This document shows, piece by piece, positions 1 to 19,221 of a stretch of DNA of 64,000 bases. The translations under genes were made by a program, and so were the position numbers. The stretch covers positions 64,001 through 128,000 of IMG/VR virus record IMGVR_UViG_3300022752_000020. One strand, 5' to 3'. Below the pieces are notes generated by a model. That model made no database searches. It was not told the DNA's origin and worked only from the letters and a program-made list of their open reading frames with translations. The stretch is from a virus. Each line of letters starts with the position of its first letter. Position 1 is the first letter of the stretch.

Positions 1-3000
1 ACATCATGTCATAACGTACTGCATCAATAACTAGACCAACGTCACGCTCACATTTGTCAATGTCATATGTAAACATTTCATAGACTGTGCCTTCACCTGC
101 TACAGCATTTAGAGGTGTTGTGTTACGAATAAACACATCATCTTGAGCACCTACAGGAGTTGTAGCATATGTAGTCCAACTGGTTGTACCAATAGTCTTG
201 ATCTTGTATCTCTTACCTGCTACTGTTTGGCTAGCTTTTAGTACTTTTACTACACGACCAGTAGTACCAGTAATAAGAGCATTGTTATATACAAATTCTG
301 TTCCAGCTGTTTGAGCCCCAGCACTACCAATAGCAGACCAATTTGTGTTACCAACTGTATGAATTACATAACTTTGTCCATTAACTAGGTTATTTGTACC
401 TGAAACACCAGGTTTTACAGTTGTAGCACCAAACCAATCTGTCCATGTACCATCTCTTGTTACTGTAACTTGAGCTAATGGTCCTGTACCTTCTTGGTTA
501 CTTGCTGGAGCACTTGTATTGTTTACTCTAGCCATCTTGAGCTGTTGTCTAATGTACTCTGTTACTTGACTCTGTAGACTACTTCTACCTGGATAGCTTG
601 TACCGCTGACCACTTGAGCAGCATCACTGGTCTTGTAAAGTACTAATAGGTCATTAGGGAACTTGAGATCATTTGGTACCCAACCATAGCTTGGCTCAAC
701 AAACGCTGGAGCAGCTACAGCAAAGCTACCATCTTGATTACACAAGTTTCTAATTACCCATGCTAGACTTTGAGCTGTTTGAGCAGCAGCACTGCTACCT
801 GCATCACCTGGGCTCTGTTTAGCAATAATTCTTAAATCAGCTACATCATCACCTTGTGCTACTAGTTTAACTAGATTAGATAGACGAGTAAATGCAGCAA
901 TGCTGGCTGTTAGATCATCACCACTAATTGACTCAGTTTGAGATCCTACAAGTTCTCCACTTGCAACGCCGCCAATATAATATGCACCACCAGCAATAAT
1001 ACTTTCCATATTACCGCCATAGGTCATATCATAATATAGTGCATCTAGTATAAGATCCATATCTCTCAAGCATTTTGACTCTACGAAATCTAATGTAGCA
1101 AATGCTGCATCACTTAAGATGTATTTGAGTATTTCAGCTTTTAAGAACTCTCTATTACTTTCAATTAGGTTACGTGCATAACCATAGCTGGCCAAATAGG
1201 TTGTATTATAACCTGTTGGACTTGGGCATGAATATGCTGGGATAACTACTTCACCTTTTGTTACAATATTAATTAATAGATCCATTCTGTCTGCTACACG
1301 CTCTGAAGCTACAGCAACATTCTTTGTTAGATCAACTAATTTTTCTTTTAATAATTTAAATGCTTCAATAGTAGGTACTTTTTGATCACCAACTACCTTG
1401 CTAGCCTGTGCTCTATAGTAAGCACGAGCAGCAGTGATAGTTCTGAAGTTACTATTAAACATCATATCATAACGTACTGCATCAATAATGCTTTCAATAT
1501 CTTCTTGGCAATCAGTTACACTATATTGTAACTCTGGGAAACGATCACTAATATATGTTGTGATAGCTGCCTTAATAGTTGCTGCATTTGAATTCATTAG
1601 TGTACTGCTGGCCACTAGATCAGGATCAACCCAATCTGTTGTAGCTAGTGTTTCGTCAGCTTTAATGCGAGTAAATGTTAGTCCAGTTGTAGATCCTGCT
1701 GTTGTTCCAATCGCTGCATTTGCCAATGTTTGTAGAGTAAATGTAGTTGTACCATTTGTTGCACTGATTTTGTAAGTGCCATTAGTCACTACACCATTTC
1801 CACTATTTGTACCACTAATTGTTACTTGATGTCCAACAACTAAAGTAGTTGCGGCACATTGGAATTGGCCTGCTGTGCCTGTAATAGCGACATTTGTAAG
1901 TGTGGTATTATTAAGGAAACTATTTACATCTAAAATACGATCTCGAGCAAAATCACCAGCACCACTGCTACCAGCACTACCGTTCTTATTTTGTTCCTCT
2001 GTATAAAGAGCAACTTTTTCTAGTACCCAATCTCTTAATTCTTCATACACAGCAATACTTGCATCTTTTTGGTTAGCTAGTACATTTTTTGCACCAGTTA
2101 CACCACGATAGTAAGCATTAGCAGCAAGTTGTGTACGGTAATTTGTACCAAACATTACATCAAATCTTACTGCATCAATAACTGCATCAATGTCCTGCTC
2201 ACATTCAACTTGTAGAGTTTGACCAGTACTGGCTTGAGTTGTTGTATATCCTAGTCCTGGGAACTTATCAGCCATCAATGCTGTTACAGCAGCCTTAACA
2301 TCTACTCTAAACTGTGCTGCATTAATTGCTGTGTTAAGAGTTTGTAGTGTAGTATCAACCCATGTAATTACTGGAGCATCTTTAGCTGTTGCTGTTGCAC
2401 CATCTGTAATAATATCTACAAGTAGTGTCTTAACTAATTCTCTAGCTTTATCGCTGGCTGTGCCTGTAGCATCACCTACACCAACACGCTGTACTTCACG
2501 ACTCTGCTGTTGATTTCTGGTAAATGTTAGACCAGTAGTTGTACCACTTGCACCTGGAGCTGTTACAATAGCTGTACCATCAACATTGGCTAGTCTAATC
2601 TCAGTGCTACTTGTTACTGCAACAACCTTATAAGTCTTAATAACCTGTGTAGCAGGATCTGCACCACCGACTACTAGACCTGTAATTGTTGCGGTACCTG
2701 TATAAGTAGCTGTCTTAGTTGCTGTAATTAAATCACCAACAATCAATGGATTGCTTGGAGCAGTTAGAGTAAATGTACCATCTGTTGTAGCAGTTTTTAC
2801 TGTCATACCTGCTAGAGATTGGCTAATTACTCTTGAACCACTTGTCACAAACTTCAATAAGTTACCTAAGAATCTAAATGCTTGTTGAGTAGCATTTAAT
2901 TCACCAGCACCCAATGTACCTTGAGGACCGCTACCATTAGCATAGTAACTATCAGCAGCGATAAATGTTGCTGTATTACCACCATAGGTTAAGTCATACA

Positions 3001-6000
3001 TGATAGCATCTAGAACTAGATCTACATCTCTTTCACACTTAACTTTATTATAATTTGCTGGAGGACTATTAGCATCAATAAATGCTGTTGTCTCTGCAAT
3101 TAAGAACTGCTTATTGCTAGCAATCATCTTTACTGCATTGAAATAGTCTGTATTACCAGCATGAGCACCTGTGGCTGTTGGTTTTGGCATTACGAATGGT
3201 TTTCTTGGAGTAAATCCTGGACCATCTAAAATGATTTTATTCAACAAGTCAAAACTAGCATTTATTCTATCTTTGGCTTGGAATTGACCACTTGGCTTAA
3301 CATCTTTTAGCTGTACAACTTGATCAACAACTTCTTTTAGTCTTTCATAAGCAGCCACTGTTTGAATAATCTGCTTTGGAATTGTTGATTTTGGTGTTAC
3401 TGCACCATCAAAATATGCGATAGCTGCCTGTGTTGTATCAACATTACCACCGTATAACAAGTCATAGCACATGGCATCAATTAAGAAACCAACGTCACGA
3501 GCACACTTGTCTTTGTTATAGGCAAAATTCATATCAACAAAGTCACTTACAGCATTCTTTAACTTGTTAATTGTAGCTGTTGTTGCTAACAATGTATTAA
3601 ACTTAAGAATATTAGCATCTACCCATGATGTTACTGGTGTTGATGGACTAAATGTGTAGGTTGTTGGATCATTAATATAATTTTTAATAATTGTTACAAG
3701 AGTTTTTGCCTTATCACCACTGGTTCCATTTCCAGCATTGGCTGTTACAGGTTGATTTTGTGTGTAAGCATTGCCATCAGCATCATTATTTGTTGTTAGA
3801 GCCGTACCTTCAGCAACATCTTCAACTAGATCTGCTAGGAAGTTATAAGCAGCCACAGTAGCGGCTGTTTCACCTGCACCTAATGCTAGATTTACACCAC
3901 TTGTACCACCATAATATGCCTTAGCAGCAATAATAGTTTCTAAATTACCACCATATGTTTGGTCATAATAAATTGCATCTAAGATATATTCAACATCTCT
4001 GCGACATGCTGTTTCATCATAGTCTAAACTTGGATAATTTAATGTAATATATGCAACTACTCTATCCTCAATCCAAGCACGATTTGCCTCAATTAAGTTA
4101 CGTGCTTTTAGTCTTTCTGCATTGCTGGCATTATCAGATCCGCTTGTTGGATCTGTTATAATAAATGCTGGCTCAACTGCTAGACCATTCTCAAGTATCT
4201 TAAGAATAGTATCCATGCTACGGCTTACACGCTGAATACTAGCACTTTCTGCTGTAGTTGGATTGTCTGGATCTACTGCTTTAACAATTTCTAATAGTTT
4301 TCCTTTTAAGTATTGGAAACTGGCCAATGTAGCTGTCTTTTGATCTTTAACTACTGTACTAGCCATAGCACGATAATAGCTACGACCAGCTACAATACTA
4401 CGGAAGTTACTGTTAAACATCATGTCATAGCGTACAGCTTCAACTACATAGCCTACATCACGACGACATTTTTCTCTATCATAGCCAAATAGAACATAGT
4501 TATCGTCTACAAAATCTGCAACTTTATTTTTAACATCTTCTTTATTAGCTTGTAATATATCAAAAGATTTCTTAAGAGCTGTATCAATCCAATCTAAACT
4601 AGGTACACTTGGCACTGTGGCTAAATCGGCTACTGGTGGACTCTCAGCCACGCTGTCATCAATCAATTTGATGATTAAATCTACGCATGTACCAATTTCT
4701 TTGGCTGCTGTAGCACTACCATCACTGCCGTTTGGACTACGAACCTGTGTAGTAATATTACCAACTGTTGGTGTCCATACAAGGTCTTGAGCTACACTTT
4801 GTACAACTAACTTCAAGTATTGATATGCACGTAGAGTAGCACTAACTTCATCCATTTGAGTACCGCTTGGATCTAGTTGGCTTAGTGTGCCTACTGCATA
4901 GCTTAAACCTGCTACCTTACTTTCTAGTGTACCACCATAAGTTGTATCATAAAATAGTGCATCAAGAATCAAGTTTAGATCACGACGGCACTTGTCTACA
5001 TCAAATCCAGCTGGGTTAGCATAAGTTGAACTGGTTGCACCTGGAGTAATCTTTTCAAATCTCATTGTAGTTGTGAAACCAGATGAGCTTGTTGTAACAA
5101 CTGGGCTACCGTCTAGGTTAACAATCTTGAATCCTGGTGTATATTCAGTGGCTGTACCTGGATTAGCTCTAGCTTCAACTGTAGCTACCTTGTACACGCT
5201 TGGGCTGTTATAACCACTAATACTTGCACCAGAGAACATCTTACCACTAATTCTAATCAAATCACCAACTGCTAGAGTTGTGAATTCTGATTGTCCAGTT
5301 ACTGGGTTAACACTAAATGAGCCATCTGTTGAAAAAGCACCAATAACACCTTTGAACTTTACAACTCCTTTGACTAGTTCTAATCCTGGTGTGTTAATAT
5401 ATGTTAGAACATCATCAATAATAAACTCTCTATTCTTCTCAACTAGGTCACGAGCACGTTTGTACTCAATGGCACGACCTTTCTCTGGGAATGGCATACG
5501 ATATTTTGGAACTGTTTCTAAACCTTTATCCACAATATCAATAATAATATCCATATTGCTTTCTATACTGTTAACTGCTAATGAGTTAGTCTTAACTAAT
5601 TCTTTAGCTAATTTCCTCAAGTGTCTGAAAGCACCCACTGTGGCTAGTTTTTGATCGCCTTTAACCTTAGCAGCATTAGCTCTATAATAAGCACGACCAG
5701 CACTAATACTACGGAAGTTGCTGGTAAATGCTAGGTCATATGATAATGCATCTACAATTAGTTCAACATCTCTAGCACACTTATCTCTATCAAACTCATT
5801 TAGAGTAAAGTTAGCATCAATGAATCCTACAATTTCATCTTTGATGAATTCAACATTATTACGTAGGATATTAACTGCTGTTTTACGATCTAGGTCTTCC
5901 TCGTTATTTCTTGTTGGGATTGGGAATGTTAATGCTGTACCATAACCATTGATTGGATCATAGCCATAAGCAACACCATTCACTGTAACCTTAGCATTTG

Positions 6001-8420
6001 TGATAATATCACCATCTTCATTAACTCTTGCACCGTCTAAAATATCAATAACAATATCAAATCTTGTACTGATTTCTTCTTTAGCACTTGGAGCAACGAT
6101 TCTCTTTAGTGTAATATTTTTGGCAGCTTTCAAGCTGGCTACAGTTTGTACTTTTTGAGCACCAACTACTTCGCTAGCATAAGCACGTAGGTAACTGATA
6201 GCAGCATTAATAGTCTTATAATTACTGCCAAAAACCATGTCACTTAAAATAGCGTCTAAAATTAAACCAACGTCTCTATAGCACTTTGGCTTATTAAAGC
6301 TAAAGTTATCAAAGAAGCTGTTAGCCATAAACTTGATTGTTTCTGTTTTAATATCTTCCTTGGCTGCTAGAACTGCATCACGAATAGCCTTATATGTTGT
6401 AGGCTGATATGTAACAGTTGGATAACCTGTTGTAGTTGTACCTAATGTTAGATCTGTTGCTGTGTTAACACGAGCAAACTTAGTATCACCATCACTAATT
6501 GTATACCAGTTAATGTTAATATATGCTAACATTTCAGCACGGATGAAATCTCTGTTAGCCATCAATAGATCAAAGGCACGTATTTTGTTTGTATCTGTGC
6601 TGGCAACAAGATTAATAGGCTGCTTTAGTCTTTGAACACTATCTTCACTGTTGTTTGGACCTTCTTGTAAGATCTCGTTAATAATGTCAATTAAATTACC
6701 AATAGCTACAACTTCTGTACTAGTAGCTGGAGGTAAATCTGTACGTTGTGGTACAGCCTCTTGCCATGGATTTGGAGTTGGGCTGCAAGTAATTACATCA
6801 CGTACAAGTTCCTTCATGTACTTGTAAGCATTTACTGTCTGCTTGATCTGATTTGGTAATACACTCTTTAATACATTTGTGTCTTCATTAAAGTCAAAGT
6901 AATAAATGCCTGCTGTAACAGCTTGACGATTACCACCGTGTACAAGGTCAAAACAGATACTGTCAATAATGTAACCTACATCACGGCTACACTTAACTCT
7001 ATCATAATCAAATCCTGGGAATGCTCTACCTAAATAACTGATAACGTCATCTCTAATTGCTTGTTTATTTGTTTGTAGTGCTGTAAATGCAGCTTCAAGA
7101 TCAGCATCATTTAGACGCTTACCATTTGGCTGAATAAAATCACTTGTTCCTACGATTTCATTATCTAGTCCTTTTAAGAACAAACTAAACAAGGCACCAA
7201 GTCTATTAACCTGTGTTTGAGTAGTTGCTACTAGACCATTAGCTTCTTTAAACTGAGTTATTCCAGCTTGAGCACTTTCAATGGTATCTAAAATTACCAC
7301 ACGCTGTGAAAATAATTGAGCACGACCATAGGCATCAACAGTTGCTGGGACTTCTTCAGCTGCCTTAAGTTGGCTTAGACCATTTGCATAATTGTAATAA
7401 CGCTTGGCAGCATCTACTGTTTGGCTATTACCACCATAGATCAAGTCATAGCAAATTGCATCAATTGTATAACCAATATCTCTACCGCATGTAGCCTGCT
7501 TGTCTGCATCAAAGCCATAAATTACAATCTGTGGCCAGTTTTTCTTAATATAGTCAATAACTTCAGCTACAACAAATTTCTTATTAGCCTGTAAGTTCTT
7601 TACTAGATTAACTACACTTGCTTCTGTATCCTGTAAAGCTGGATATGCTAGCTTGTAATTATTTGTATCTCTATAATCTAAATAAGTTGTTAAAGTTGCT
7701 AGACCACCTGATGACATTGCTGTAGTAAGAATATCAAAATTGCTCTGTACTCTTGATAATAACACTGCATCTTCTTGCACAATAGGAGCAATTTGATCTC
7801 TTACAAACTTATAAGCTTCAATAGTTGGTACTCTTTGTTCTTCACTAATAGTATATGTTCCAGCAACGGCTGTCAAATATGTAATAGCAGCCTTGATAGT
7901 TCTATAGTTTGTACCAAATATAATATCATCTGCCACTGCTTCAATAACTAGTCCAACATCACGCTTGCACTTTGAACTTACAAAGGCTAAAGTTGGATAA
8001 TTCTTTTTCAAGAAAGCAATAGCAGCATCTTCAATTTGAGCTTTTCTATCTAATATAGTTTGTCTTAATACCTTATATTCTGGTTCTGCTGCATCTAGAT
8101 CAGGACCAACAATTAATGTTGGACTTAATGGACCTTCTGCTACAATTTTACTGATGATGGCAAATTCATCTTTTACAATACGCTTGGCTGTGGCTGTAGC
8201 ACTAGCAGTAGTCAATACACTGGCGGCAGTAACTTGAGCACGTTGAATAGCTGCTGCTGTTTGAACTTGTTGTTCAATACCAGTTGTAATATTATCTTTG
8301 GCCCAATAACGTAGGCCAGCAAATGTACTTTGTGTAGTACCTTCATATAATAGGTCAAATGCTAGACCATCTACTACAAGACCGTTATCTCTATCACATG
8401 TTGTTTGGTTGTAATTGGCA
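1..8420 (-). repeat. 15 degenerate protein-level repeats with core [K/T/A]C-x-RD-[VI]-x-x-[IV]-[IVL]-DA-x-x-YD-x-x-[YF]G[GT]N
   Basis: Cys codons start at 8398, 7969, 7489, 6991, 6283, 5779, 4990, 4468, 4006, 3505, 3037, 2203, 1510, 1072 and 52, all in one frame. Basic spacing 143-174 codons; longer where modules are inserted. Confidence 0.9.
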
Positions 8421-9337
8421 AAAAGTACACCATCACCAATGTTAGGACGTCTTGCTAAATTCTTAAATGTGATCTGACGACCAGCTGACTTCTTAACAAT
8501 ACCACGATATAATGGATCACTGGCACCACGACTAACTAGACCGTAGTTACCAAATGAGCTGTTGGACAAGTTAACTGAACAGAATCCACCGTTCTCACAC
8601 ATAAATGATATGTCACAGCAAATTGTAAAGATGGACACTAACTGTGTATTACCTCTGTTCAACATGTGAATACCAATACCACCTTGGTTATACTGTGTAA
8701 ACGCATCACAAACCATTGAACGTAAGCCTGTGGTCAATGCACCGTCAACACGCATACCTGTACCAGTAGTTGTAATACTTGTAACAGCCTGTGTGTATGG
8801 TGATGTTACGATTTCACCAGCACTACCGTCTGGTGGGAAACATACCGCAGCACTTGGTGCAATATGTCCTTTAAAGTTCATACAGAAGATGTAAGCGCCA
8901 TTGTATACCCAGAAGATATCCTTGGTTGGATTCTTTGGACGAACTGTGGTGTTACGCAAGTTGTCACCAACAACTGACACACGAGCTGGAACACGTAGTG
9001 GGTTATCTTCAATATACTCCCCACTCTTTAAGAATATAGTTGTGCCAGGAGTCGCTATGCTCAGTGCCTTCTTTAGTGTCAAAAAAGCTTGACCTAATGT
9101 CTTTCCGCTGTTACTATCATCACCGTTCTTGGCCACATAAAGTACATTAGGTACTTCCATTGCTCCAATTTCAATAATTTTCTGAATAGCAGCGAAACCT
9201 TCTGGTTGCTTGATTTCTTGTTTTGTAAACAGTTTACCATCGGCTGTGTTAAGTGCTAATTCGCCTAGGTCAATGCTATCTAGTGATGGTACTTTGCCAG
9301 GTATATCACTACGCTTAAATCTAATATTTGTGCTCAT
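1..9337 (-). CDS. Giant distal tail-fibre-like virion protein (>3,112 aa, 3' end outside window): gp37-like N-terminus, beta-helix-like domain, then 15 phycobiliprotein-like helical repeats
   Basis: Not in the ORF track. ATG at 9335-9337 with AAGGA Shine-Dalgarno and TAAATA late promoter upstream. Manual translation begins MSTNIRFKRSDIPGKVPSLDSIDLGELALNTADGKLF (resembles the T4 gp37 N-terminal IQFKRS...GELAIN motif), then VLYVAKNGDDSNSG...TIFLKSGEYIEDNPLRVPARVSVVGDNLR (pectin-lyase/DUF1565-like opening). All segments translated, from 9337 down to position 52, lie in the same frame. Confidence 0.9.
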   Translation of the reverse strand, partial: MSTNIRFKRSDIPGKVPSLDSIDLGELALNTADGKLFTKQEIKQPEGFAAIQKIIEIGAMEVPNVLYVAKNGDDSNSGKTLGQAFLTLKKALSIATPGTTIFLKSGEYIEDNPLRVPARVSVVGDNLRNTTVRPKNPTKDIFWVYNGAYIFCMNFKGHIAPSAAVCFPPDGSAGEIVTSPYTQAVTSITTTGTGMRVDGALTTGLRSMVCDAFTQYNQGGIGIHMLNRGNTQLVSIFTICCDISFMCENGGFCSVNLSNSSFGNYGLVSRGASDPLYRGIVKKSAGRQITFKNLARRPNIGDGVLFANYNQTTCDRDNGLVVDGLAFDLLYEGTTQSTFAGLRYWAKDNITTGIEQQVQTAAAIQRAQVTAASVLTTASATATAKRIVKDEFAIISKIVAEGPLSPTLIVGPDLDAAEPEYKVLRQTILDRKAQIEDAAIAFLKKNYPTLAFVSSKCKRDVGLVIEAVADDIIFGTNYRTIKAAITYLTAVAGTYTISEEQRVPTIEAYKFVRDQIAPIVQEDAVLLSRVQSNFDILTTAMSSGGLATLTTYLDYRDTNNYKLAYPALQDTEASVVNLVKNLQANKKFVVAEVIDYIKKNWPQIVIYGFDADKQATCGRDIGYTIDAICYDLIYGGNSQTVDAAKRYYNYANGLSQLKAAEEVPATVDAYGRAQLFSQRVVILDTIESAQAGITQFKEANGLVATTQTQVNRLGALFSLFLKGLDNEIVGTSDFIQPNGKRLNDADLEAAFTALQTNKQAIRDDVISYLGRAFPGFDYDRVKCSRDVGYIIDSICFDLVHGGNRQAVTAGIYYFDFNEDTNVLKSVLPNQIKQTVNAYKYMKELVRDVITCSPTPNPWQEAVPQRTDLPPATSTEVVAIGNLIDIINEILQEGPNNSEDSVQRLKQPINLVASTDTNKIRAFDLLMANRDFIRAEMLAYININWYTISDGDTKFARVNTATDLTLGTTTTGYPTVTYQPTTYKAIRDAVLAAKEDIKTETIKFMANSFFDNFSFNKPKCYRDVGLILDAILSDMVFGSNYKTINAAISYLRAYASEVVGAQKVQTVASLKAAKNITLKRIVAPSAKEEISTRFDIVIDILDGARVNEDGDIITNAKVTVNGVAYGYDPINGYGTALTFPIPTRNNEEDLDRKTAVNILRNNVEFIKDEIVGFIDANFTLNEFDRDKCARDVELIVDALSYDLAFTSNFRSISAGRAYYRANAAKVKGDQKLATVGAFRHLRKLAKELVKTNSLAVNSIESNMDIIIDIVDKGLETVPKYRMPFPEKGRAIEYKRARDLVEKNREFIIDDVLTYINTPGLELVKGVVKFKGVIGAFSTDGSFSVNPVTGQSEFTTLAVGDLIRISGKMFSGASISGYNSPSVYKVATVEARANPGTATEYTPGFKIVNLDGSPVVTTSSSGFTTTMRFEKITPGATSSTYANPAGFDVDKCRRDLNLILDALFYDTTYGGTLESKVAGLSYAVGTLSQLDPSGTQMDEVSATLRAYQYLKLVVQSVAQDLVWTPTVGNITTQVRSPNGSDGSATAAKEIGTCVDLIIKLIDDSVAESPPVADLATVPSVPSLDWIDTALKKSFDILQANKEDVKNKVADFVDDNYVLFGYDREKCRRDVGYVVEAVRYDMMFNSNFRSIVAGRSYYRAMASTVVKDQKTATLASFQYLKGKLLEIVKAVDPDNPTTAESASIQRVSRSMDTILKILENGLAVEPAFIITDPTSGSDNASNAERLKARNLIEANRAWIEDRVVAYITLNYPSLDYDETACRRDVEYILDAIYYDQTYGGNLETIIAAKAYYGGTSGVNLALGAGETAATVAAYNFLADLVEDVAEGTALTTNNDADGNAYTQNQPVTANAGNGTSGDKAKTLVTIIKNYINDPTTYTFSPSTPVTSWVDANILKFNTLLATTATINKLKNAVSDFVDMNFAYNKDKCARDVGFLIDAMCYDLLYGGNVDTTQAAIAYFDGAVTPKSTIPKQIIQTVAAYERLKEVVDQVVQLKDVKPSGQFQAKDRINASFDLLNKIILDGPGFTPRKPFVMPKPTATGAHAGNTDYFNAVKMIASNKQFLIAETTAFIDANSPPANYNKVKCERDVDLVLDAIMYDLTYGGNTATFIAADSYYANGSGPQGTLGAGELNATQQAFRFLGNLLKFVTSGSRVISQSLAGMTVKTATTDGTFTLTAPSNPLIVGDLITATKTATYTGTATITGLVVGGADPATQVIKTYKVVAVTSSTEIRLANVDGTAIVTAPGASGTTTGLTFTRNQQQSREVQRVGVGDATGTASDKARELVKTLLVDIITDGATATAKDAPVITWVDTTLQTLNTAINAAQFRVDVKAAVTALMADKFPGLGYTTTQASTGQTLQVECEQDIDAVIDAVRFDVMFGTNYRTQLAANAYYRGVTGAKNVLANQKDASIAVYEELRDWVLEKVALYTEEQNKNGSAGSSGAGDFARDRILDVNSFLNNTTLTNVAITGTAGQFQCAATTLVVGHQVTISGTNSGNGVVTNGTYKISATNGTTTFTLQTLANAAIGTTAGSTTGLTFTRIKADETLATTDWVDPDLVASSTLMNSNAATIKAAITTYISDRFPELQYSVTDCQEDIESIIDAVRYDMMFNSNFRTITAARAYYRAQASKVVGDQKVPTIEAFKLLKEKLVDLTKNVAVASERVADRMDLLINIVTKGEVVIPAYSCPSPTGYNTTYLASYGYARNLIESNREFLKAEILKYILSDAAFATLDFVESKCLRDMDLILDALYYDMTYGGNMESIIAGGAYYIGGVASGELVGSQTESISGDDLTASIAAFTRLSNLVKLVAQGDDVADLRIIAKQSPGDAGSSAAAQTAQSLAWVIRNLCNQDGSFAVAAPAFVEPSYGWVPNDLKFPNDLLVLYKTSDAAQVVSGTSYPGRSSLQSQVTEYIRQQLKMARVNNTSAPASNQEGTGPLAQVTVTRDGTWTDWFGATTVKPGVSGTNNLVNGQSYVIHTVGNTNWSAIGSAGAQTAGTEFVYNNALITGTTGRVVKVLKASQTVAGKRYKIKTIGTTSWTTYATTPVGAQDDVFIRNTTPLNAVAGEGTVYEMFTYDIDKCERDVGLVIDAVRYDMM

Positions 9338-9370
9338 TTATTTTCCTTTAACATGAAAATTCATACTTTA

Positions 9371-9376
9371 TATTTA
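9371..9376 (-). promoter_or_regulatory. T4-type late promoter (TAAATA)
   Basis: TTTTTGGTAAATA upstream of the giant fibre gene; the same 13-mer occurs at 17231-17243. Confidence 0.65.
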
Positions 9377-9397
9377 CCAAAAATGCAGGAAATACTG

Positions 9398-11485
9398 TTA
9401 GTACTCCCCACAATCGATCACTGTGTCCACTAACTTTCCACCTTTGATGTACCCTCCTACATTAAGGTCTTTGGTTATGTTAGTGTCGCCCTCTACTTCT
9501 AATTCTCTCTGAACTTTTACACTATCTTCTACCTCCAAGCTTTGGCTAACTCTTGCAGATGCTTCAACGTACAAGTTGTTGTCCACTGCAAAATTACCAG
9601 CGATAGCTAAATCTCTATTAATCTGTAGATTTCCATCTACTTCCAAATTATTATTAACATTGGTAACACCTTCACTACTACCAATTTCAATGTTTGTTGC
9701 TTCACCTGCAAAATTCACAGTCTTGGCTGTGGTATTTGCTAGATTAAATTCTGATGTACTAACTCTTAAATCACCACCATCAATATTAACATCACCATCA
9801 ACATCTAAGTTATTATTAATATTGGTTGTACCAGTACTAGCACCTATTTCAATATTTGTAGCAGCACCAGCAAAATTAACATTCTTAGCTGTGTTATTTG
9901 CAAGGTTAAATGTTTCTGTGCTGACTGTTAGATCTCCACCATCAATATTAACATCACCATCTACATCTAAATTATTATTAATATTGGTTGTACCAGTACT
10001 AGCACCTATTTCAATATTTGTTGCAGCACCAGCAAAGTTTACTGTGGTTGTTGTCTCATTTAATAAATTAAAAGTAGATGTACTGGCACGTAAATCTCCG
10101 CCATCAATGTTAACGTCACCATCAACATCTAAATTATTGTTAATATTGGTTGTTCCGGTACTAGCACCTATTTCAATATTTGTTGCAGCACCACCAAAGT
10201 TAATTGTTGTAGCATTGGCATTAGCTATATTAAATGTTGGTGTACTAACTGTTAAATCACCACCGTCAATATTCAAATCACCATCAACATCTAAATTTTG
10301 TCCGATATGAAAGTTACCGTCTACATTAAGATTACCATCAACATCTAAATTATTACGAACATTTGTTGTACCTGTTGTTGCACCAAGAACAATACTGGTA
10401 GCTGCTTTGGCAAAATTCACTGTAGTTGCTACATCTGGAATTAGGTTAAAAGTTTGACTAGTTGTCTTTAAGTCATCTCCATCAATAACTACATCACCAT
10501 CAACTTCAAGATTATTACGAACATTTGTTGTACCTGTTGTTGCACCAAGTAAAAGACTAGTAGCAGCACCAGCAAAGTTAATAGTTGTAGCAGTTGTGTT
10601 TAAAAGATTAAACACACTTTGACTAGTAGTTAAATCACCACCATCAATATTAACATCACCATCTACATCTAAATTATTATTAATATTGGTTGTACCAGTA
10701 CTAGCACCTATTTCAATATTTGTTGCAGCACCACCAAAGTTAATTGTTGTAGCAGTTGTGTTTAAAAGATTAAACACACTTTGATTAGTAGTTAAATCAC
10801 CACCTTGTATTTCTAAATCTTTCTTAATTACTGCATTTTCTTCAACAACAATATCACCTCTTAGTGTAATTAGAGTAGGTAAGGCTGGATTACCACGCAT
10901 TATGGGACTATCTACCTTAAATGCATAGTCAAATCCTTTTGGTCCTACATACCTATATCCAAATACATAGATAACATGACTACCGGTCATACCTGTTGGT
11001 ATTGTATTTCCATAAAAATGTAGTATACCAGCTTGATAATCAAAATACCATTCACCAGCACCTAATATACCATCAGCAAATATTTGTGTACCACCACTTG
11101 TACTTGGGTCTGTTAAACCACTATTACCGTAATAAACTTTTACTCTATAACTATTTGTAACATTAACTGTATCAAATTCAGGAGGGATCCAATCTGTGAG
11201 ACCAGTTTTCCATGTAGGATAAACAGTACCACTCATTCTTTGACTAGTAGTATCTGCTGTACATTCTACTCTATTATTTTGTAAGTAGCCTGTGACGGTG
11301 CCTATTGTTGCATTTGCAGTAGCAGGAACCAAATAGGCATTGAGCCAGATACTGTCCCCTCTATTTAGAGAGGGGCTGGCTATAGATTCATTACTTACAC
11401 TCTTGTTGGCAGCGGTATCAGTTTTAGCTACACCTGCTAACTTCTTTAGTAATAAATCAACTCTGGTTGTATCAGTTACGGCCAT
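9398..11485 (-). CDS. Tail fibre protein with seven 54-aa repeats (gp36-like connector position)
   Basis: Repeat NNLDVDGDVNIDGGDL...FNL.N.TA..[IV]NF.GAAT.IEIGASTGTT. C-terminus IDCGEY resembles the ID-x-G-x-[YF] ending of T4-like fibre connectors; lies directly upstream of the gp37-like gene. Confidence 0.7.
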   Translation of the reverse strand: MAVTDTTRVDLLLKKLAGVAKTDTAANKSVSNESIASPSLNRGDSIWLNAYLVPATANATIGTVTGYLQNNRVECTADTTSQRMSGTVYPTWKTGLTDWIPPEFDTVNVTNSYRVKVYYGNSGLTDPSTSGGTQIFADGILGAGEWYFDYQAGILHFYGNTIPTGMTGSHVIYVFGYRYVGPKGFDYAFKVDSPIMRGNPALPTLITLRGDIVVEENAVIKKDLEIQGGDLTTNQSVFNLLNTTATTINFGGAATNIEIGASTGTTNINNNLDVDGDVNIDGGDLTTSQSVFNLLNTTATTINFAGAATSLLLGATTGTTNVRNNLEVDGDVVIDGDDLKTTSQTFNLIPDVATTVNFAKAATSIVLGATTGTTNVRNNLDVDGNLNVDGNFHIGQNLDVDGDLNIDGGDLTVSTPTFNIANANATTINFGGAATNIEIGASTGTTNINNNLDVDGDVNIDGGDLRASTSTFNLLNETTTTVNFAGAATNIEIGASTGTTNINNNLDVDGDVNIDGGDLTVSTETFNLANNTAKNVNFAGAATNIEIGASTGTTNINNNLDVDGDVNIDGGDLRVSTSEFNLANTTAKTVNFAGEATNIEIGSSEGVTNVNNNLEVDGNLQINRDLAIAGNFAVDNNLYVEASARVSQSLEVEDSVKVQRELEVEGDTNITKDLNVGGYIKGGKLVDTVIDCGEY
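9650..10810 (-). repeat. 162-bp (54-aa) tandem repeat, about 7 copies
   Basis: TAATATTGGTTGT recurs at about 9817, 9979 and 10141 (162-bp period); seven GGDL/DDL units in the protein. Confidence 0.85.
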
Positions 11486-11497
11486 TATCTATCCCTA

Positions 11498-14350
11498 TTA
11501 TTGATCGCTCACATCTAAATATAAACTAGTCATTGACTGACCTTGATTTAATCTAATTCTTACCCATATTTCATTGTTAGTACTATTGGTACTACTCAAT
11601 GTTCCAAAACTAATATTAACTTGATTAGTACCTGCTGCTGTTGGGAGATTACCGCCTAATGCACAACCGCCTGCTAGACTATTGTCTATGGCTGCACTTA
11701 ACCAACTGTTAACATGTCCTGATTTTAAACTAGTTCCATTTGCTCCTGGTAATGCTGCCCAAATACCTGCTATACCCCCTGGTGTAGTCCAACGTATTCT
11801 AAACTTGCTTACTCCGCTTCTTACAAATCTAAAAGTAAAATATTGTGGATTAGCCGCTGTTCTTGTACTTAAATTTGGTCCTGCAGGAAGATATCCTGTT
11901 GAATAATTTGTTACATCATGTTTAAGACTATTAACACCTGTTCCTGTTCCTACTACTGTAGCATCTGTAGCTAATAATGTACTTGTTTGACTGTTGAACA
12001 ATGTGCTACCTGCTGTGAATACTGGATTATCTGTGCTGGCAACTCCTGCATCTGGATTCTGACATCTTGTAGCACCAGTTGTACTACCACCTACTGCTGC
12101 ATTAAAAAATATATTAGTTTCATCTAAAAATGATGTGCTACTTGTTGTTCCAGTTTTATAAAGAACTATAGCATTTAGTGTTGGTAATGCTGAATTAGCT
12201 GTAAGATAACTATTATCTGCTGTGAATTGTGGCACAGTAGTTGTAGTTGTCCAAGCACCAAATCCTGTAATTATGTTAACAACAAAGTTTGTACTATTTG
12301 GGCCTGCTCCTGTTGTAACCGTAGTTGTTGCTGGCAATGTTGTATAGGCAAAATTAGCCAATGTTTTATTACCTGCACTGGTCCATGGTCCTACTGCACT
12401 AGTAGTTAGACATGTGCTGGCTGTACTAGGTAAACTGGTTTGTCCTGGATTCCAAGTTACGACAAATCCTATGTTATAAATTGTACTACTATTGTAATGT
12501 GGAATAGTACTACTATAGGTTATATTGCTTGTACCAAGAGTAAAAGTTTGAGCGCTGAATACAGGGGCTAGTGGGCTAGTACTATCATAGTACCAAATAC
12601 CTATATTACTGGTATTAGCTCCAATTGTAGTTGATCCTGCCGCATCATGAGCTATTTGCACTGTATTCCATCCTGCTGGCACTGATGTTCCAGTAACGCT
12701 TAAATCTACTGTCTCATGAAATCCTGGCTTGTCAACAGGATAAGCTACATTATTACCTACAACAAGACTAGTATTATATGCTGTATATGTATTATTATCG
12801 TTCTGTGTAGTAAATTGTAAACTTTGTCCACTTGTTGTAGCATTGGCTACTATATTGGTTGCACTTTGTTGACCAGTTACAGTATTATAACTGGCCAATT
12901 TTAAAATCTTTGAACTAATAAAAGTTATAACATATGTACCATTAAGTGCTAGTCCACCAAAAGCAGTACCACTTGCTGATATTTTAATCAAATAACCTGG
13001 AACTAATACGCCTGTAGTTGGCTGTGTGTACTTGAATTCTTCACTGCCATTAGTTGATCCTGTTAGCACTGTAGTTATTACTTGGGTAGTATTACCATAA
13101 GTTAATTTCTTTGTAACCGCTGCACTATTATTTCTATTAACTGTTATAATACCACGATTGCCTGGACCAGTGTCTGATATTGTATTGGTACTAAATGTAC
13201 TGACTCTTGCCACATATACTACTGTTCCAGCTGCTGGTGCAGTAATACCTGTACCATTTGTTGATTGACTAACAGCATCAATATTCATAATACGTTGTGT
13301 TAGACTATTAATAGTTAAATTTGTAGCATTTGGAAAACTTGGGGGTGGTAGAGGAACTAATAATGTTAATGTTAAATTAAGTTGAGCTACACCATCTGTT
13401 AAACTGGTCTGCTGCGTCATATCCACTGCACCAGCTAGTATTCCATATTCTGGATCACCCATTAAAATATAGTTTGCGTTATCTGTAGCTACATCTCCAA
13501 GGACATTTAGATCATTATGTATTCTGGTATCATTAATAAGTTCGATCAGCCCATTACCATTTGACGCTAATGTTAAATGTCCTTGGCTAAATGTATTGCT
13601 AACTTTTGTATAATTCTGTGGATTGTTTATGCCAGTAAATGTTTTAGCTGGTAGTGTACCAGATCCGGGGATAGATGTTTGAGTAAAGTTATAAGTGTCA
13701 CCAACTTCTGGACCACCTAATCTCATATCATCAACATAAACTTGACGCCATGATTTAGTCAAACTTCCCAGATCATAAGTATCATCTACATCGGGAATAA
13801 TATCACTTATAATATCTGCATTAAATTGAATAGTATCTGTATTTTGATCACCTAAGACCAAATTGCCATCTGCTGTAATACTACCGGTAGCATGTATATT
13901 ACCATTAACTTCTAAATTACCTCTTAAATCTAACTGGCTAAATCCGTTAACTGAATCTGTTGTTGTAATTTTAAATGTTCTACTATCAAAAGTTATGTAG
14001 TCTAAAACTGTATTAGTTTTAAAACTAAGTCCTTGACTATAACTTTTTATTTCATTACCATCAATTTGAACATTATCTATTCTAAGATAATCACCAAGAT
14101 ATGTATTACTAAAAGTTGTACCTGAAACATCTAATGGATATATAGGGTTTACTTTGTTTATACCTACACCAACTATCTTAGTAGGATCATTATCCTTAGG
14201 AACTGATAGGTATAACAGAGCTCTATTTACATTGGTAGTTACGCCACCTACTGTTTCTGGTACAGATCTCTCCTCAAAAGACATATCTTCTCCATATCTG
14301 AGAAGATTCTTTCTGAGCATCGAACCTGAAATACGACCTACATTGGCCAT
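11498..14350 (-). CDS. Virion structural / tail-fibre-associated protein (950 aa)
   Basis: Thr/Gly/Asn-rich; fibre-type motifs GVGINKVNPIYPLDVSG, GNLEVNGNIHATGSITADGN and IIPDVDDTYDLGSLTKSW; located in the fibre cluster. Confidence 0.65.
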   Translation of the reverse strand: MANVGRISGSMLRKNLLRYGEDMSFEERSVPETVGGVTTNVNRALLYLSVPKDNDPTKIVGVGINKVNPIYPLDVSGTTFSNTYLGDYLRIDNVQIDGNEIKSYSQGLSFKTNTVLDYITFDSRTFKITTTDSVNGFSQLDLRGNLEVNGNIHATGSITADGNLVLGDQNTDTIQFNADIISDIIPDVDDTYDLGSLTKSWRQVYVDDMRLGGPEVGDTYNFTQTSIPGSGTLPAKTFTGINNPQNYTKVSNTFSQGHLTLASNGNGLIELINDTRIHNDLNVLGDVATDNANYILMGDPEYGILAGAVDMTQQTSLTDGVAQLNLTLTLLVPLPPPSFPNATNLTINSLTQRIMNIDAVSQSTNGTGITAPAAGTVVYVARVSTFSTNTISDTGPGNRGIITVNRNNSAAVTKKLTYGNTTQVITTVLTGSTNGSEEFKYTQPTTGVLVPGYLIKISASGTAFGGLALNGTYVITFISSKILKLASYNTVTGQQSATNIVANATTSGQSLQFTTQNDNNTYTAYNTSLVVGNNVAYPVDKPGFHETVDLSVTGTSVPAGWNTVQIAHDAAGSTTIGANTSNIGIWYYDSTSPLAPVFSAQTFTLGTSNITYSSTIPHYNSSTIYNIGFVVTWNPGQTSLPSTASTCLTTSAVGPWTSAGNKTLANFAYTTLPATTTVTTGAGPNSTNFVVNIITGFGAWTTTTTVPQFTADNSYLTANSALPTLNAIVLYKTGTTSSTSFLDETNIFFNAAVGGSTTGATRCQNPDAGVASTDNPVFTAGSTLFNSQTSTLLATDATVVGTGTGVNSLKHDVTNYSTGYLPAGPNLSTRTAANPQYFTFRFVRSGVSKFRIRWTTPGGIAGIWAALPGANGTSLKSGHVNSWLSAAIDNSLAGGCALGGNLPTAAGTNQVNISFGTLSSTNSTNNEIWVRIRLNQGQSMTSLYLDVSDQ

Positions 14351-14472
14351 TACGCTCCCCTATACCCCGTGTTTCACGGTTAACCTTTGTTTGAGCTTGC
14401 GCTCGCATCCCTTACGGGCTCTTTGCCGGTTTACCACAGTTTGATGTGATACTCACAGAATCATGAGTACCA
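14351..14472 (-). ncRNA. Candidate structured 5' leader (cis-regulatory RNA) of the 950-aa gene
   Basis: GC-rich ~120 nt between a TAAATA promoter (14477-14482) and SD GGGGAG/ATG. Hairpins GUACUCAU/GUGAGUAU, CCC-GUAA-GGG, GAGC-GCAA-GCUC, CCGUG-AAA-CACGG; long-range GGUAAACC/GGUUAACC. Confidence 0.6.
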
Positions 14473-14476
14473 ATCT

Positions 14477-14482
14477 TATTTA
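14477..14482 (-). promoter_or_regulatory. T4-type late promoter (TAAATA)
   Basis: GCTAAATAAG in the intergenic gap immediately before the structured leader. Confidence 0.55.
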
Positions 14483-14500
14483 GCTAGATTTGGGAAAAGG

Positions 14501-15175
14501 TTAGTCAAACCCGTGAATTACAGTCACCGTTTTACCAGGAGGTGGTGGACTAAAAAATTGAATATATTTTCCAGTAGGGTAGGATTTTGAGCTTGGGGCA
14601 TTAACCATGATATAATTCGTATATGGTATTTGAAAAACATTTTCAACATATACAAATATGTTAGCAGCACTCTTTGGTACAAGTGCATTTACATCTCTTA
14701 TAGGACCAAAATTTAATTCTGTCCCATCAACAAAGCTTATAGTATTAAGATTTTCAATTTCACTATCAGCATCGCCTTCATAAGATGGATAAGTTTCTTC
14801 ATCTGCTAGAAATATTCCGCTGCTTGCTGGATCTGCACCAAATCTTTGTATGGTTACTAGAGCAGGTTGTTTAGCTTTTAACTGAATCCAGATACCATTA
14901 GTTAATACTTCAAGAGCATCTTCATCAAGATTATATCTTATTAAACCGCTATTTTTATACCATGTTGTGGGTGCAGGTCTTTCGTCAGTATATCCTGTGG
15001 GTAAAAATAAAGCTTTTAACTGAGGCAATCCTGTATACCAAGTAGCACCTGGAGCAGTTCTATCATAACTATATGGAATATCCATTATGACCTGTCCATC
15101 ATACCTACTGCTATAGGTCAATTCTAAACTTTTAGCACTATTATTATTAATTTTATTTTGTTTATAAAATTTCAT
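14501..15175 (-). CDS. Small virion structural protein
   Basis: LPTGYTDERP...GLIRYN and IFVYVENVFQIP...IQFFSPPP..VTVIHGFD motifs typical of T4-like fibre/baseplate-associated beta modules. Confidence 0.6.
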   Translation of the reverse strand: MKFYKQNKINNNSAKSLELTYSSRYDGQVIMDIPYSYDRTAPGATWYTGLPQLKALFLPTGYTDERPAPTTWYKNSGLIRYNLDEDALEVLTNGIWIQLKAKQPALVTIQRFGADPASSGIFLADEETYPSYEGDADSEIENLNTISFVDGTELNFGPIRDVNALVPKSAANIFVYVENVFQIPYTNYIMVNAPSSKSYPTGKYIQFFSPPPPGKTVTVIHGFD

Positions 15176-15564
15176 TACTGTACCTGCACAACGCTTAAAA
15201 AAGCATTGATAGCACTGGGGCGATCAGCACTGGCCCAAATAGCATCCAGTTCGCCTAAAATAATTTTTTCGCTATCAAAAGCAAATGTATCACCTACATT
15301 AATAGCAAGTTCCTTAATACATACATTAGTACTACTAGGATTCCTCCCTTTCTCTACAAGATATATGGTAAGCAAGGCTGGTTGAGTATCTCTATTACAG
15401 AAAAACATACTAGTAATAGCATATGCTTTACCTGGAAAGTTTGGAGCGGTGAAAGGAGGAGTGTTAACTTGAAAAAGAGCAGTGCCACCTGCAACAGTGC
15501 CTGGTGTTGTCACCGTTGCTTCTGTTACACTTAACACTGGTACTAGAGCTGTTACTAAAGCCAT
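15175..15564 (-). CDS. Small structural protein (129 aa)
   Basis: Overlaps the next start codon; beta-rich with AITSMFFCN and EKIILGELDAIWA; structural operon context. Confidence 0.55.
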   Translation of the reverse strand: MALVTALVPVLSVTEATVTTPGTVAGGTALFQVNTPPFTAPNFPGKAYAITSMFFCNRDTQPALLTIYLVEKGRNPSSTNVCIKELAINVGDTFAFDSEKIILGELDAIWASADRPSAINAFLSVVQVQ

Positions 15565-15574
15565 AAAAATTCCT

Positions 15575-16777
15575 TTAAAATATTAGCCCATAAACTAGAG
15601 CATTAGCAGCACTACACAGTTCACCAGTGGTATTATTGTTAGTAAAAAATATACCTGTTCCACCTGATCCTTGTGTGGCTCTACTATATATAGTATTTGT
15701 TCCCGTTGTACTTGTAGGATCAGAAAGAGCTGGACTGAGATAATCAATCTTAACTATGCTCCTTATCACTACATTTCCTGTAGAAGGATTGATTACTAGA
15801 TCAGCATTATCTGTTTTAATTATTGCCTGATCACCAATATCTATAACGACCTTAAGATTCCTATCAGCTAATCCGCCTCGACCAACAACTAAGCCTTGAT
15901 CCGTACCTACTTTACCTATTCTAGCCACAGCCAATTGAGCTAAATCTCCAGGTGGTGTTCTTGGAAAACTACCTAAATCACTACCTACAGTAAACAATAC
16001 TCCACTAAATCCATCACCTGTTTGACTTATATCCTTGGCCTGTGCACCACTATAAGTATTTAGAGTGTTTAAATCAGTATATCTAAAAAACTGTTGAATA
16101 ACAGCTTGACCTGCTTCAGCTCTTACATAATCCCTAATGAACTGTATGTTAGGTATAGCATTATTACCTTCTTCTTGCATTGTTATATCAGGATTATCAA
16201 TTAATTTTTTAATACGTATATGATAAGCATCATAAAGCTGATCCTCATTTAGATCGGAAGCTTTATAATCAACTTTTAAAAGTCCTTCATATCCAACAAA
16301 AAAACTTAAATCTTTATTTGGTTGCACACCATAAGTTTGTATTCTATTAGTTGTTATCGGTAATAAAGACTTATTAGGTAAAGTACTTTTACTGACAAAC
16401 GATTCTAAAACAGGATATGCAGTTTTATCTTCTAAACTGTCACCACCTAAAACATAACCTCTTAAAGGAACTTCATCAAACACAAATAATGCGTCTACAT
16501 TTCCTCTATCTATTTCTATTCCAGACATTGGTTCAACACCGCTTATGCCACTCTGACCATTTCCTGGACCTTGTTCACCTCTGTTCAGTCTTATAATACG
16601 GTCTTCAATTTCTAAATTTGTGGAATTTACATAGGTGGCACCACCTTCTACATAAAGATCTCCTGTTACAGTAACTCTACCAGAATTACCTGGTCCAGGA
16701 TTCAATAGAATTTCACTACCTGTTTCTTCGGCAATGATCTTATAACCACCTTTCTGTATTCTTAAAACTTTAGACAT
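15575..16777 (-). CDS. Virion structural / fibre-like protein (400 aa)
   Basis: VTVTGDLYVEG..TYVNSTNLEIEDRIIRLNRG and SGIEIDRG motifs common in T4-like fibre proteins. Confidence 0.6.
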   Translation of the reverse strand: MSKVLRIQKGGYKIIAEETGSEILLNPGPGNSGRVTVTGDLYVEGGATYVNSTNLEIEDRIIRLNRGEQGPGNGQSGISGVEPMSGIEIDRGNVDALFVFDEVPLRGYVLGGDSLEDKTAYPVLESFVSKSTLPNKSLLPITTNRIQTYGVQPNKDLSFFVGYEGLLKVDYKASDLNEDQLYDAYHIRIKKLIDNPDITMQEEGNNAIPNIQFIRDYVRAEAGQAVIQQFFRYTDLNTLNTYSGAQAKDISQTGDGFSGVLFTVGSDLGSFPRTPPGDLAQLAVARIGKVGTDQGLVVGRGGLADRNLKVVIDIGDQAIIKTDNADLVINPSTGNVVIRSIVKIDYLSPALSDPTSTTGTNTIYSRATQGSGGTGIFFTNNNTTGELCSAANALVYGLIF

Positions 16778-16778
16778 T

Positions 16779-17165: not shown

Positions 17166-17179
17166 TTGTTTCTCCTTTA

Positions 17180-17236: not shown

Positions 17237-17244
17237 CCAAAAAA

Positions 17245-17943: not shown

Positions 17944-17969
17944 AATGATTCCTAAATAATAGCATATTT

Positions 17970-18000: not shown

Positions 18001-18032
18001 ATAATAGAACAAATTCTTGGTCTATTGAATGA

Positions 18033-19211: not shown

Positions 19212-19221
19212 TTCTTTCTCC

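Follow-up and report, generated by a model that had tools for sequence, protein, structure and literature searches.

A giant tail-fibre-type gene of a freshwater jumbo phage, made of repeated and predicted globin-like domains that are very likely related to phycobiliproteins

Why does a structural gene of a phage repeat, 33 times, a domain with the chromophore motif of a light-harvesting protein, and could such a domain still bind a bilin? The question arises from a stretch of 64,000 nucleotides (nt), hereafter the window, which covers positions 64,001 to 128,000 of IMGVR_UViG_3300022752_000020 and belongs to an uncultured freshwater jumbo phage. The source record is an IMG/VR fragment of 159,920 bp with a completeness rating of 45%. 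An earlier note, made from the letters of the window alone, had described at its left end a giant tail fibre of at least 15 tandem phycobiliprotein-like domains which retain the bilin-attachment cysteine.

The gene appears in the window as a single minus-strand open reading frame (ORF) at positions 2..9337, with 3,112 codons and no stop, which runs past the left edge; its start is at 9337 and not at 8420, as had been thought. The whole gene (G000:C1:52623-73337, minus strand) encodes 6,904 amino acids (aa) and is free of stops and Ns. A motif search finds in-frame C-x-x-D sites 15 times in the window and 33 times in the whole gene, and 33 of the 52 cysteines of the protein stand at these sites. 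Cys and Asp are kept in 15/15 window units and Arg in 13/15, the exceptions being CEQD and CQED. These are the counts of the earlier note, whose 15 in-frame helical units are all found again and whose examples at 3505, 1072 and 6991 are exact. The units are spaced by 132-340 aa, mostly 132-188, with one gap of 751 aa in the whole gene, and the longer gaps are filled by beta-rich, Thr/Gly-rich insertions. When a profile of the units is searched against the 160-kb record, the fibre gene scores 3,993 bits and the domain is found in no other frame. The array is thus far beyond chance. Its features in the window are as follows.

2..9337, minus strand: giant fibre gene, first 3,112 of 6,904 codons (ORF; matches to PHROG tail-fibre families, E 2e-127 and below)
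8378..9337, minus strand: N-terminal 320 aa, a tail-fibre-type N-terminus and then DUF1565, a pectate-lyase-like beta-helix (phrog_17885, PF07602)
8066..8548, minus strand: unit 1, Cys314 (codon 8396-8398), CDRD, divergent; by motif search
7637..8119, minus strand: unit 2, Cys457 (codon 7967-7969), CKRD, GTNYR type; by motif search
7157..7639, minus strand: unit 3, Cys617 (codon 7487-7489), CGRD, GGN type; best single-unit match to PF00502 (E 8e-4, profile positions 27-98)
6659..7141, minus strand: unit 4, Cys783 (codon 6989-6991), CSRD; PF00502 E 0.06, in register
5951..6433, minus strand: unit 5, Cys1019 (codon 6281-6283), CYRD; PF00502 E 0.004, profile positions 73-155
5447..5929, minus strand: unit 6, Cys1187 (codon 5777-5779), CARD; by motif search
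4658..5140, minus strand: unit 7, Cys1450 (codon 4988-4990), CRRD, preceded by an inserted beta-rich segment
4136..4618, minus strand: unit 8, Cys1624 (codon 4466-4468), CRRD, NSNFR type; first half of the two-domain model
3674..4156, minus strand: unit 9, Cys1778 (codon 4004-4006), CRRD, GGN type; second half of the two-domain model
3173..3655, minus strand: unit 10, Cys1945 (codon 3503-3505), KDKCARDVGF; modelled singly
2705..3187, minus strand: unit 11, Cys2101 (codon 3035-3037), CERD, followed by an inserted beta-rich segment
1871..2353, minus strand: unit 12, Cys2379 (codon 2201-2203), CEQD, Arg lost
1178..1660, minus strand: unit 13, Cys2610 (codon 1508-1510), CQED, Arg lost
740..1222, minus strand: unit 14, Cys2756 (codon 1070-1072), CLRDM
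2..202, minus strand: unit 15, Cys3096 (codon 50-52), CERD, truncated by the window edge; 18 further units follow in the record

Among the Pfam families, the protein matches PF00502 (Phycobilisome protein) best, with 24.1 bits against a cut-off of 22.2 (E 3.8e-5). Among the excised single units, three match PF00502 with 13.7-19.8 bits, below the cut-off (E 8e-4 to 0.06); the three matches share one register, in which the Cys falls on the profile position of Cys84. When all of the record is scanned with PF00502, three places are marked, each inside the giant gene. Two profiles, one made from 13 units and one from 31, were run against 177,635 distinct PDB sequences, and the ~30 top matches are all C-phycocyanin alpha, over residues ~36-104, with the unit Cys on Cys84 and E values of 0.003-0.005.

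Profile-profile comparisons were made by hhalign, with cpcA and cpcB sequences taken from the cpcBA operons of cyanobacterial genomes. An alignment of 98 units matches cpcA with 88.8% probability (P 2.5e-6), and a 300-unit family profile with 95.0% (P 3.9e-8, 59 columns); reversed-sequence controls give P 0.13-0.6, and CpcB reaches 6-21% probability only. The greedy hhalign alignment is co-linear from helix A through helix H. A six-frame search of five cyanobacterial genomes (2.4-8.2 Mb) with the unit profile has cpcA as the best match in 5/5, and no gene outranks it. Of the 120 closest relatives in the databases, about half already have a precomputed assignment to PF00502, and they are named 'hypothetical protein' throughout. 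Other candidates that came up in these searches, YvfG and Mu Gp27 in Pfam, type IV pilin and Nrd1 in the PDB search, were below threshold and out of register across units, and were set aside as noise.

The units fall into GGN and NSNFR/GTNYR subtypes, and a composition of fused alpha/beta pairs was considered. It was rejected, since both subtypes are CpcA-like (95% and 90% probability against CpcA, 21% and 14% against CpcB, respectively) and do not alternate family-wide; within the giant protein their alternation is weak (21/31 neighbour changes, shuffle P 0.04).

The fold was predicted with AlphaFold2. The model of unit 10, built on 98 units from the window phage and eight related contigs, has six helices, with a pLDDT of 79.9 and a pTM of 0.77. 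The top 50 Foldseek matches of this model in the PDB are all phycobiliproteins (TM 0.52-0.64 over 139-168 columns, E 0.014). VIA-align, which is independent of Foldseek, was run against 48,161 representative chains and places far-red allophycocyanin first, with a Z score of 13.7, a range (Z ~13) that helical models can reach by arrangement alone. Next come three ApcE chains (Z 12.5-12.9), more allophycocyanin and phycoerythrin, sensor globins (9-12) and haemoglobins (~7); the phycobiliproteins among the top matches have Z scores of 12.2-13.7 over 122-136 aligned residues. A two-domain model of units 8 and 9, made from a separate 23-row alignment (pLDDT 81, pTM 0.80), also has mostly phycobiliproteins as its best Foldseek matches. 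Structure prediction, which the earlier note had proposed as a check, thus yields a globin-like fold with helices A, B, E, F, G and H rather than a non-globin bundle, and phycobiliproteins are the best matches in both structure searches.

The X-Y hairpin of the antenna subunits is missing from the units: the model has no helix pair before helix A, the repeat period goes down to 132 aa, and the unit alignment begins only at about residue 19-38 of the phycobiliprotein subunits. The equation of one unit with a whole phycobiliprotein chain, made in the earlier note, must be corrected accordingly, as the units match the globin part only (helices A to H).

Could the array instead be a convergent helical repeat, in which a motif resembles helix E of CpcA by chance and drives AlphaFold to a globin? 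The confident part of the alignment spans only ~26-59 columns, CpcB scores poorly, and the PDB E values (0.003-0.005), the Foldseek E value (0.014) and a Z score within the reach of mere helical arrangement would all allow it. Against this stands the fact that independent methods all rank phycobiliproteins first of all families, with flat reversed controls. In addition, cpcA is at the top in each of the five genomes, the alignment follows the helices in order from A to H, the two models agree and come from different alignments, and PF00502 is precomputed on about half of the relatives. The argument for kinship is this agreement in rank, each single number being modest. The units are, in our view, very likely homologous to the phycobiliprotein / bilin-binding-globin family, and convergence is a very improbable explanation. 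The claim of phycobiliprotein-like domains with which the analysis began is thus supported by Pfam, PDB profiles, hhalign, the rank of cpcA in five genomes and two AlphaFold models.

In both the HMM and the hhalign alignments, the Cys, Arg and Asp of the units align with Cys84, Arg86 and Asp87 of C-phycocyanin alpha, so that the triad is retained in register, as had been proposed. Phycobiliproteins share the CXRD motif with the globins BBAG-1/3, which occur in heterotrophic bacteria and need no lyase to attach a bilin (PMC10151467). Among 1,519 units taken from 151 proteins, the Cys is conserved in 95%, Arg(+2) in 95% and Asp(+3) in 99%, along with Asp(+14) in 99%, Tyr(+30) in 98% and Tyr/Phe(-5) in 93%. 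The 72 units without the Cys have Phe, Tyr, Ser or Thr in its place, and half of them have also lost the Arg, compared to 3% otherwise (odds ratio 33). They are also poorer in Lys(-1), Ala(+26), Tyr(+30), Gln(+42) and Thr(+46), while Asp(+14), Asn(+20) and Gly(+18) are unchanged. This suggests that a functional site which extends across helices E, F and G degenerates as a whole, and that the fold is held by other residues.

In the whole giant protein the Cys is kept in 33/33 units and Arg(+2) is replaced by Gln or Glu in 6/33. Family-wide, ~3% of the Cys-bearing units have no Arg, and nine kin proteins keep it in every unit. Judged from these substitutions, the chromophore-type site may be partly relaxed in the window phage.

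A conserved site of this kind might also have a use unrelated to bilins. It could bind a metal ion through Cys and Asp along the axis of a trimer, form a disulfide between chains or another crosslink, or accommodate a heme-like ligand or a molecule of the host surface. From their spacing, Cys, Asp(+3), Ile(+7), Ala(+10) and Asp(+14) would lie on one face of helix E, and a free thiol on an extracellular protein calls for an explanation. Phage fibres are commonly trimers with axial metal sites, as at the tip of the T4 long fibre. The units have no conserved His or second Cys and, in particular, not the proximal His of heme globins. The match to the bilin triad would be a coincidence, and nothing points to any specific other ligand. 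Such a role is improbable.

The other half of the question concerns the protein in which these domains are found. Residues 1-202 match phrog_17885 'tail fiber protein' (E 3.8e-63) as well as phrog_9851 and phrog_5342, and DUF1565 (PF07602) is found at residues 71-127 with an E value of 6e-6, above the family cut-off. The minus-strand order is portal (23545-25269), major head protein (18033-19211), two fibre-like genes and then the giant gene. The two intervening genes are the following.

11498-14350 and 9398-11485, minus strand: two late genes upstream of the giant gene (950 aa and 695 aa), virion-structural or short-tail-fibre-like (phrog_6002, phrog_4527, phrog_8578)

Because of these PHROG and DUF1565 matches and of its place downstream of the portal, major head protein and fibre-like genes, the giant gene is assigned, on sequence evidence, to the late structural genes of tail-fibre type. 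The tail fibre of the earlier note is borne out in this respect. The presence of the protein in the virion is suggested by analogy with its relatives in Syn9 and S-PM2, which are annotated as virion structural proteins.

On the opposite, plus strand are baseplate genes that resemble gp5 and gp6, along with the gene of a 4,915-aa structural protein. This protein is encoded by a giant ORF at 46801-61548 (plus strand), directly after the gp6-like baseplate wedge gene, and matches phrog_10938 (virion structural protein); its G+C content is ~28%, compared to ~37% in the region of the fibre gene, and it is without phycobiliprotein-like units. Next to the baseplate genes, a 422-aa protein (61551-62819, plus strand) has many matches to tail-fibre and collagen-like minor-tail PHROGs, and may be another fibre component. 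A 1,437-aa ORF (25273-29586, minus strand), which adjoins the portal gene, has no PHROG match at E <= 1e-5.

The host can be guessed from the same region. At 66-70% identity, the major head protein resembles its counterparts in the GAP32 / Rak2 / Serratia BF group (~350-kb jumbo phages) and not those in cyanomyoviruses, and a GAP32-like capsid speaks against a T4-like cyanophage. On the minus strand of the window, at 31933-32068, is a full-length copy of the Polynucleobacter-1 RNA (Rfam RF01718), which scores 105 bits against a gathering score of 37 and hints at a betaproteobacterial freshwater host. A cyanophage identity is not supported, with psbA found neither in the record nor in 14 kin records and with a GAP32-like capsid. 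The capsid, the RNA and the failure to find psbA are indirect signs that the phage probably infects a freshwater heterotroph and not a cyanobacterium.

The domain is much more widespread than this one gene. A search of 1.84 billion representative proteins finds it in at least 1,546 protein clusters; among the matches listed, the proteins range from 844 to >6,000 aa and are all multi-unit (5 to 37 units). Stand-alone relatives of 86-277 aa were not found at E <= 1 among 5.8 billion proteins. An 837-aa piece of S-PM2 p091, searched against 50,697 cultured-phage records, has 350 matches, all in Synechococcus or Prochlorococcus phages, and a piece of the giant gene from the window has 94 matches among the cultured phages, all of them cyanophages. 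A megablast of the giant gene against the cultured phages gave no match.

The domain is present in 13 of 16 complete cyanomyovirus genomes, and not in P-SSM2, S-SM2 and S-SSM7. CpeT (PF06206) is encoded by 12/13 of the domain-bearing phages and by 0/3 of the domain-free ones (Fisher P 0.007, uncorrected for phylogeny). In six genera, represented by S-PM2, S-RSM4, S-RIM32, S-CAM3, S-H9-2 and Syn1, a domain-bearing 'short tail fiber' gene of ~4,000 aa is preceded on its own strand by cpeT, at a distance of 1-2 kb, and the interval often contains tRNAs and a 2OG-Fe(II) oxygenase. In Syn9, P-HM1/2, S-SM1, Syn19 and P-SSM4, the units are in the gp7-position giant protein, far from cpeT. The positions of the adjoining genes are given here for five of the phages.

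S-PM2, L224:8953-9480 and 10929-22268, same strand: cpeT and giant fibre gene
S-RSM4, L228:5405-5929 and 6883-20331, same strand: cpeT and giant fibre gene
S-RIM32, L229:4139-4672 and 6461 onward, same strand: cpeT and giant fibre gene
S-CAM3, L230:5217-5687 and 6719 onward, same strand: cpeT and giant fibre gene
S-H9-2, L231:4290-4820 and 6461 onward, same strand: cpeT and giant fibre gene

The cpeT ORF of S-H9-2 is unannotated; it encodes 176 aa at L231:4290-4820 on the plus strand (MW147367.1 152295-152825) and matches PF06206 with an E value of 1.5e-37. In the RefSeq record of S-PM2, 16 tRNA features lie inside the coding sequence of the 3,779-aa 'short tail fiber' (L224:13557-18384; NC_006820.1 168556-173383) and share its locus tag, which looks like an annotation error of the record.

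Some cyanophages that carry the domain depend on light to adsorb. P-HM1 and P-HM2 do not adsorb in the dark, whereas P-SSM2 and P-SSP7 do, and the light-dependent, photosynthesis-independent adsorption of S-PM2 and P-HM2 has been ascribed to light-sensitive receptors or tail fibres (PMC6628666). The domain is present in P-HM1, P-HM2 and S-PM2 and absent from P-SSM2 and P-SSP7, which is an agreement in 5/5 phages of a tiny and confounded sample.

Genes of bilin metabolism were also searched for among the kin of the window phage. Nine larger IMG/VR records encode relatives of the fibre protein, and in the five that were compared the capsid protein is 78-79% identical. Three of the nine contain an overlapping pair of genes, for a heme oxygenase (hemO, 180 aa) and a ferredoxin-dependent bilin reductase (224 aa), of which one is given here.

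IMGVR_UViG_3300032236_001613, L273:885-1427 and 1402-2076 (~163.5-164.7 kb), plus strand: hemO-reductase pair; similar pairs at L271/L275 and L272/L276

The pair is ~145 kb from the capsid gene (record G024) and ~145-150 kb from the fibre gene in the kin records. At such a distance, it would be beyond the reach of the window record and of fragments anchored on the structural region. CpeT and psbA were found in none of the nine larger records, and both are absent from the five related fragments that were searched for them. Kin records without the hemO pair keep their CxRD sites.

The idea that the fibre is the target of the phage-encoded bilin pathways (ho1, pebS, pcyA) is weakened. The phyletic pattern in the 16 cyanomyoviruses does not support it, since these enzymes do not co-occur with the domain, and sites are intact in an enzyme-free kin phage that is 93% complete. 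A link to bilin metabolism is retained in the hemO-reductase pairs of 3/9 larger kin records and in the co-occurrence of cpeT with the domain.

From the gene, its repeats, their kinship and conservation and these genomic associations, we infer a ligand, a mode of attachment and possibly a role of light. The gene would encode a giant late virion fibre, with a tail-fibre-type N-terminus, a beta-helix segment and a shaft of 33 compact six-helix globin domains, between some of which small beta domains are inserted. The globin domains keep the helix-E triad of the family, in which the Cys forms a thioether and the Arg and Asp hold the propionates and the pyrrole nitrogens. During the folding of the fibre in the infected cell, each domain would take up a linear tetrapyrrole and link it to its Cys, either by self-catalysis, as in BBAG globins, or with the help of a lyase, which in cyanomyoviruses could be the phage CpeT. 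The bilin would be supplied by the host or, where it is present, by the hemO-reductase pair of the phage. The virion would thus bear tens to hundreds of bilins on its fibres, which could stabilise the domains and make adsorption light-responsive.

A number of observations weigh against this proposal. Every sequence match is weak singly, with a signal mainly in helices B to E. The B-E loop is ~11 residues shorter than in phycobiliproteins, and the near-invariant Asp(+14) and Tyr(+30) are not features of phycobiliproteins, whose Trp128/Tyr129 in turn lack a clear match in the units. The GAP32/Rak2-like capsid and the Polynucleobacter-1 RNA suggest that the host may be a heterotroph without phycobilins. 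The search of the genome for heme oxygenase, bilin reductase and lyases, which the earlier note had called for, found none in the 160-kb record (45% complete), be it heme oxygenase, bilin reductase, CpeS or CpeT, and no psbA either; 18 related fragments, anchored on the structural region, contain neither heme oxygenase nor bilin reductase. The 93%-complete kin phage without these two enzymes keeps 17/17 CxRD sites. In the cyanomyoviruses, the distribution of bilin reductase (6/16) and heme oxygenase (4/16) does not follow that of the domain, which is missing from P-SSM2 and S-SSM7 although these phages encode both enzymes. As to CpeT, lyases of the T type act on beta-Cys153, not on Cys84 (PMC10452541).

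Several of these observations would be expected if the domain had the same origin and fold and no cofactor, that is, if a phycobiliprotein-derived globin were used as a rigid bead for building long fibres. Side chains would occupy the cleft, and a buried polar network, or an interface between domains or chains, would be made up of Cys, Arg, Asp, Asp(+14) and Tyr(+30). The strongest invariants, Asp(+14) and Tyr(+30), would then not need to be phycobiliprotein residues, the loop that is shortened is the one that walls the bilin pocket, and a probable heterotroph as host, a record without lyase genes and intact sites in an enzyme-free relative would be of no consequence. The replacement of Arg in 6/33 units of the giant protein points in the same direction, and the pTM of 0.80 of the two-domain model suggests a fixed packing of neighbours. 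To our knowledge, pigmented virions have not been reported, nor have coloured particles of any purified cyanomyovirus.

The behaviour of the Cys is harder to explain in this way. A residue that is conserved at 95% over 1,519 units which are only ~25% identical is unusual for packing, for which Ala, Ser or Val would be expected as substitutes; the substitutes observed are instead Phe, Tyr, Ser and Thr, and the loss extends to Arg and other residues of the site. The parent family uses exactly this triad to bind its bilin, and the gene of CpeT, which co-occurs with the domain, is often a neighbour of the fibre gene. A domain of purely structural use is a distinct possibility, if not the outcome that we would expect. 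The favoured proposal, in which the site still binds a linear tetrapyrrole covalently, by self-catalysis or with a lyase, is a chain of several steps and is held tentatively, as a matter that is about evenly poised and leans slightly towards no. That pigmented fibres act as a photoreceptor or as a light-dependent switch of adsorption is doubtful.

Phycobiliproteins are familiar from light-harvesting antennae, and the BBAGs, their paralogues, as small soluble proteins that bind bilins; in these phages, a domain of this kind is the main building block of giant virion fibres. Full-text literature searches found no description of phycobiliprotein-like domains in phage structural proteins. What is new is thus the architecture and the biological place in which a known domain family and site are found, in 13/16 of the cultured cyanomyoviruses sampled and also in freshwater jumbo phages of one lineage, ~330 to 360 kb in size. 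One paper asks what hemO, pcyA and pcyX do in phages of heterotrophs, and mentions globins of the BBAG type only as a possible partner of the bilins that phages make (PMC11480375).

If the site binds a bilin, the light-only adsorption of some cyanophages (PMC6628666) and the roles of phage cpeT and of phage hemO/pcyA/pcyX become testable. A light switch, if true, would explain the adsorption of S-PM2 and P-HM1/2, the puzzling phage cpeT and the hemO-pcyA/X cassette in jumbo phages of non-cyanobacterial hosts, and the fibre would be without known precedent, both as a chromoprotein and as a light sensor within a virion. If the site binds none, a light-harvesting fold of the host has still clearly become a structural module, of which a single gene holds up to 33 copies.

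Compared to phycobiliproteins (PF00502; CpcA is the closest by sequence, allophycocyanin and the bilin domain of ApcE by fold), the modelled units have the same order of helices, A, B, E, F, G, H. Both have the helix-E motif K-C-x-R-D-[IV]-G...Y.L..GG, and the aromatic residue before the Cys aligns with Tyr/Phe74. Unlike phycobiliproteins, the phage units are without the X-Y hairpin, have the shorter B-E loop (by ~11 residues) and possess the additional Asp(+14) and Tyr(+30). They form tandem arrays of up to ~37 in one fibre polypeptide, whereas phycobiliproteins are 160-aa subunits assembled in (alpha-beta)3 discs, and the phage subtypes, which are both alpha-like, do not make an alpha/beta pair.

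The BBAGs described by Rockwell et al. in 2023 (PMC10151467) are phycobiliprotein paralogues outside the cyanobacterial antennae, and CXRD is common to BBAG-1/BBAG-3 and to the phage units. The lyase-free attachment of bilins by BBAG-1/3 is the behaviour that a fibre domain would need in a phage without lyases. Compared by description, BBAGs are single small proteins encoded beside genes for heme oxygenase, ferredoxin-dependent bilin reductase, V4R and iron–sulfur proteins, whereas the phage domains are arrays in a structural gene. Unlike in the BBAG clusters, neither enzyme gene was found in the window record, and in the kin phages the pair is ~145-150 kb from the fibre gene.

The T4-like cyanomyoviruses have the same domain family (E down to 1e-28) in late structural proteins of 3,300-7,300 aa. 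Examples are p091 and the 3,779-aa 'short tail fiber' of S-PM2, gp101 of Syn9, which is annotated as a structural virion protein and putative fibre, and PHM2_086, in the gp7 position, and PHM2_096 of P-HM2. These phages have cyanobacterial hosts and carry psbA, cpeT and other such genes, whereas the window phage has a GAP32/Rak2-like capsid and none of these genes in its 160-kb record. The number of units also differs, from 1-11 per genome in the cyanomyoviruses to 33 in the one gene of the window phage.

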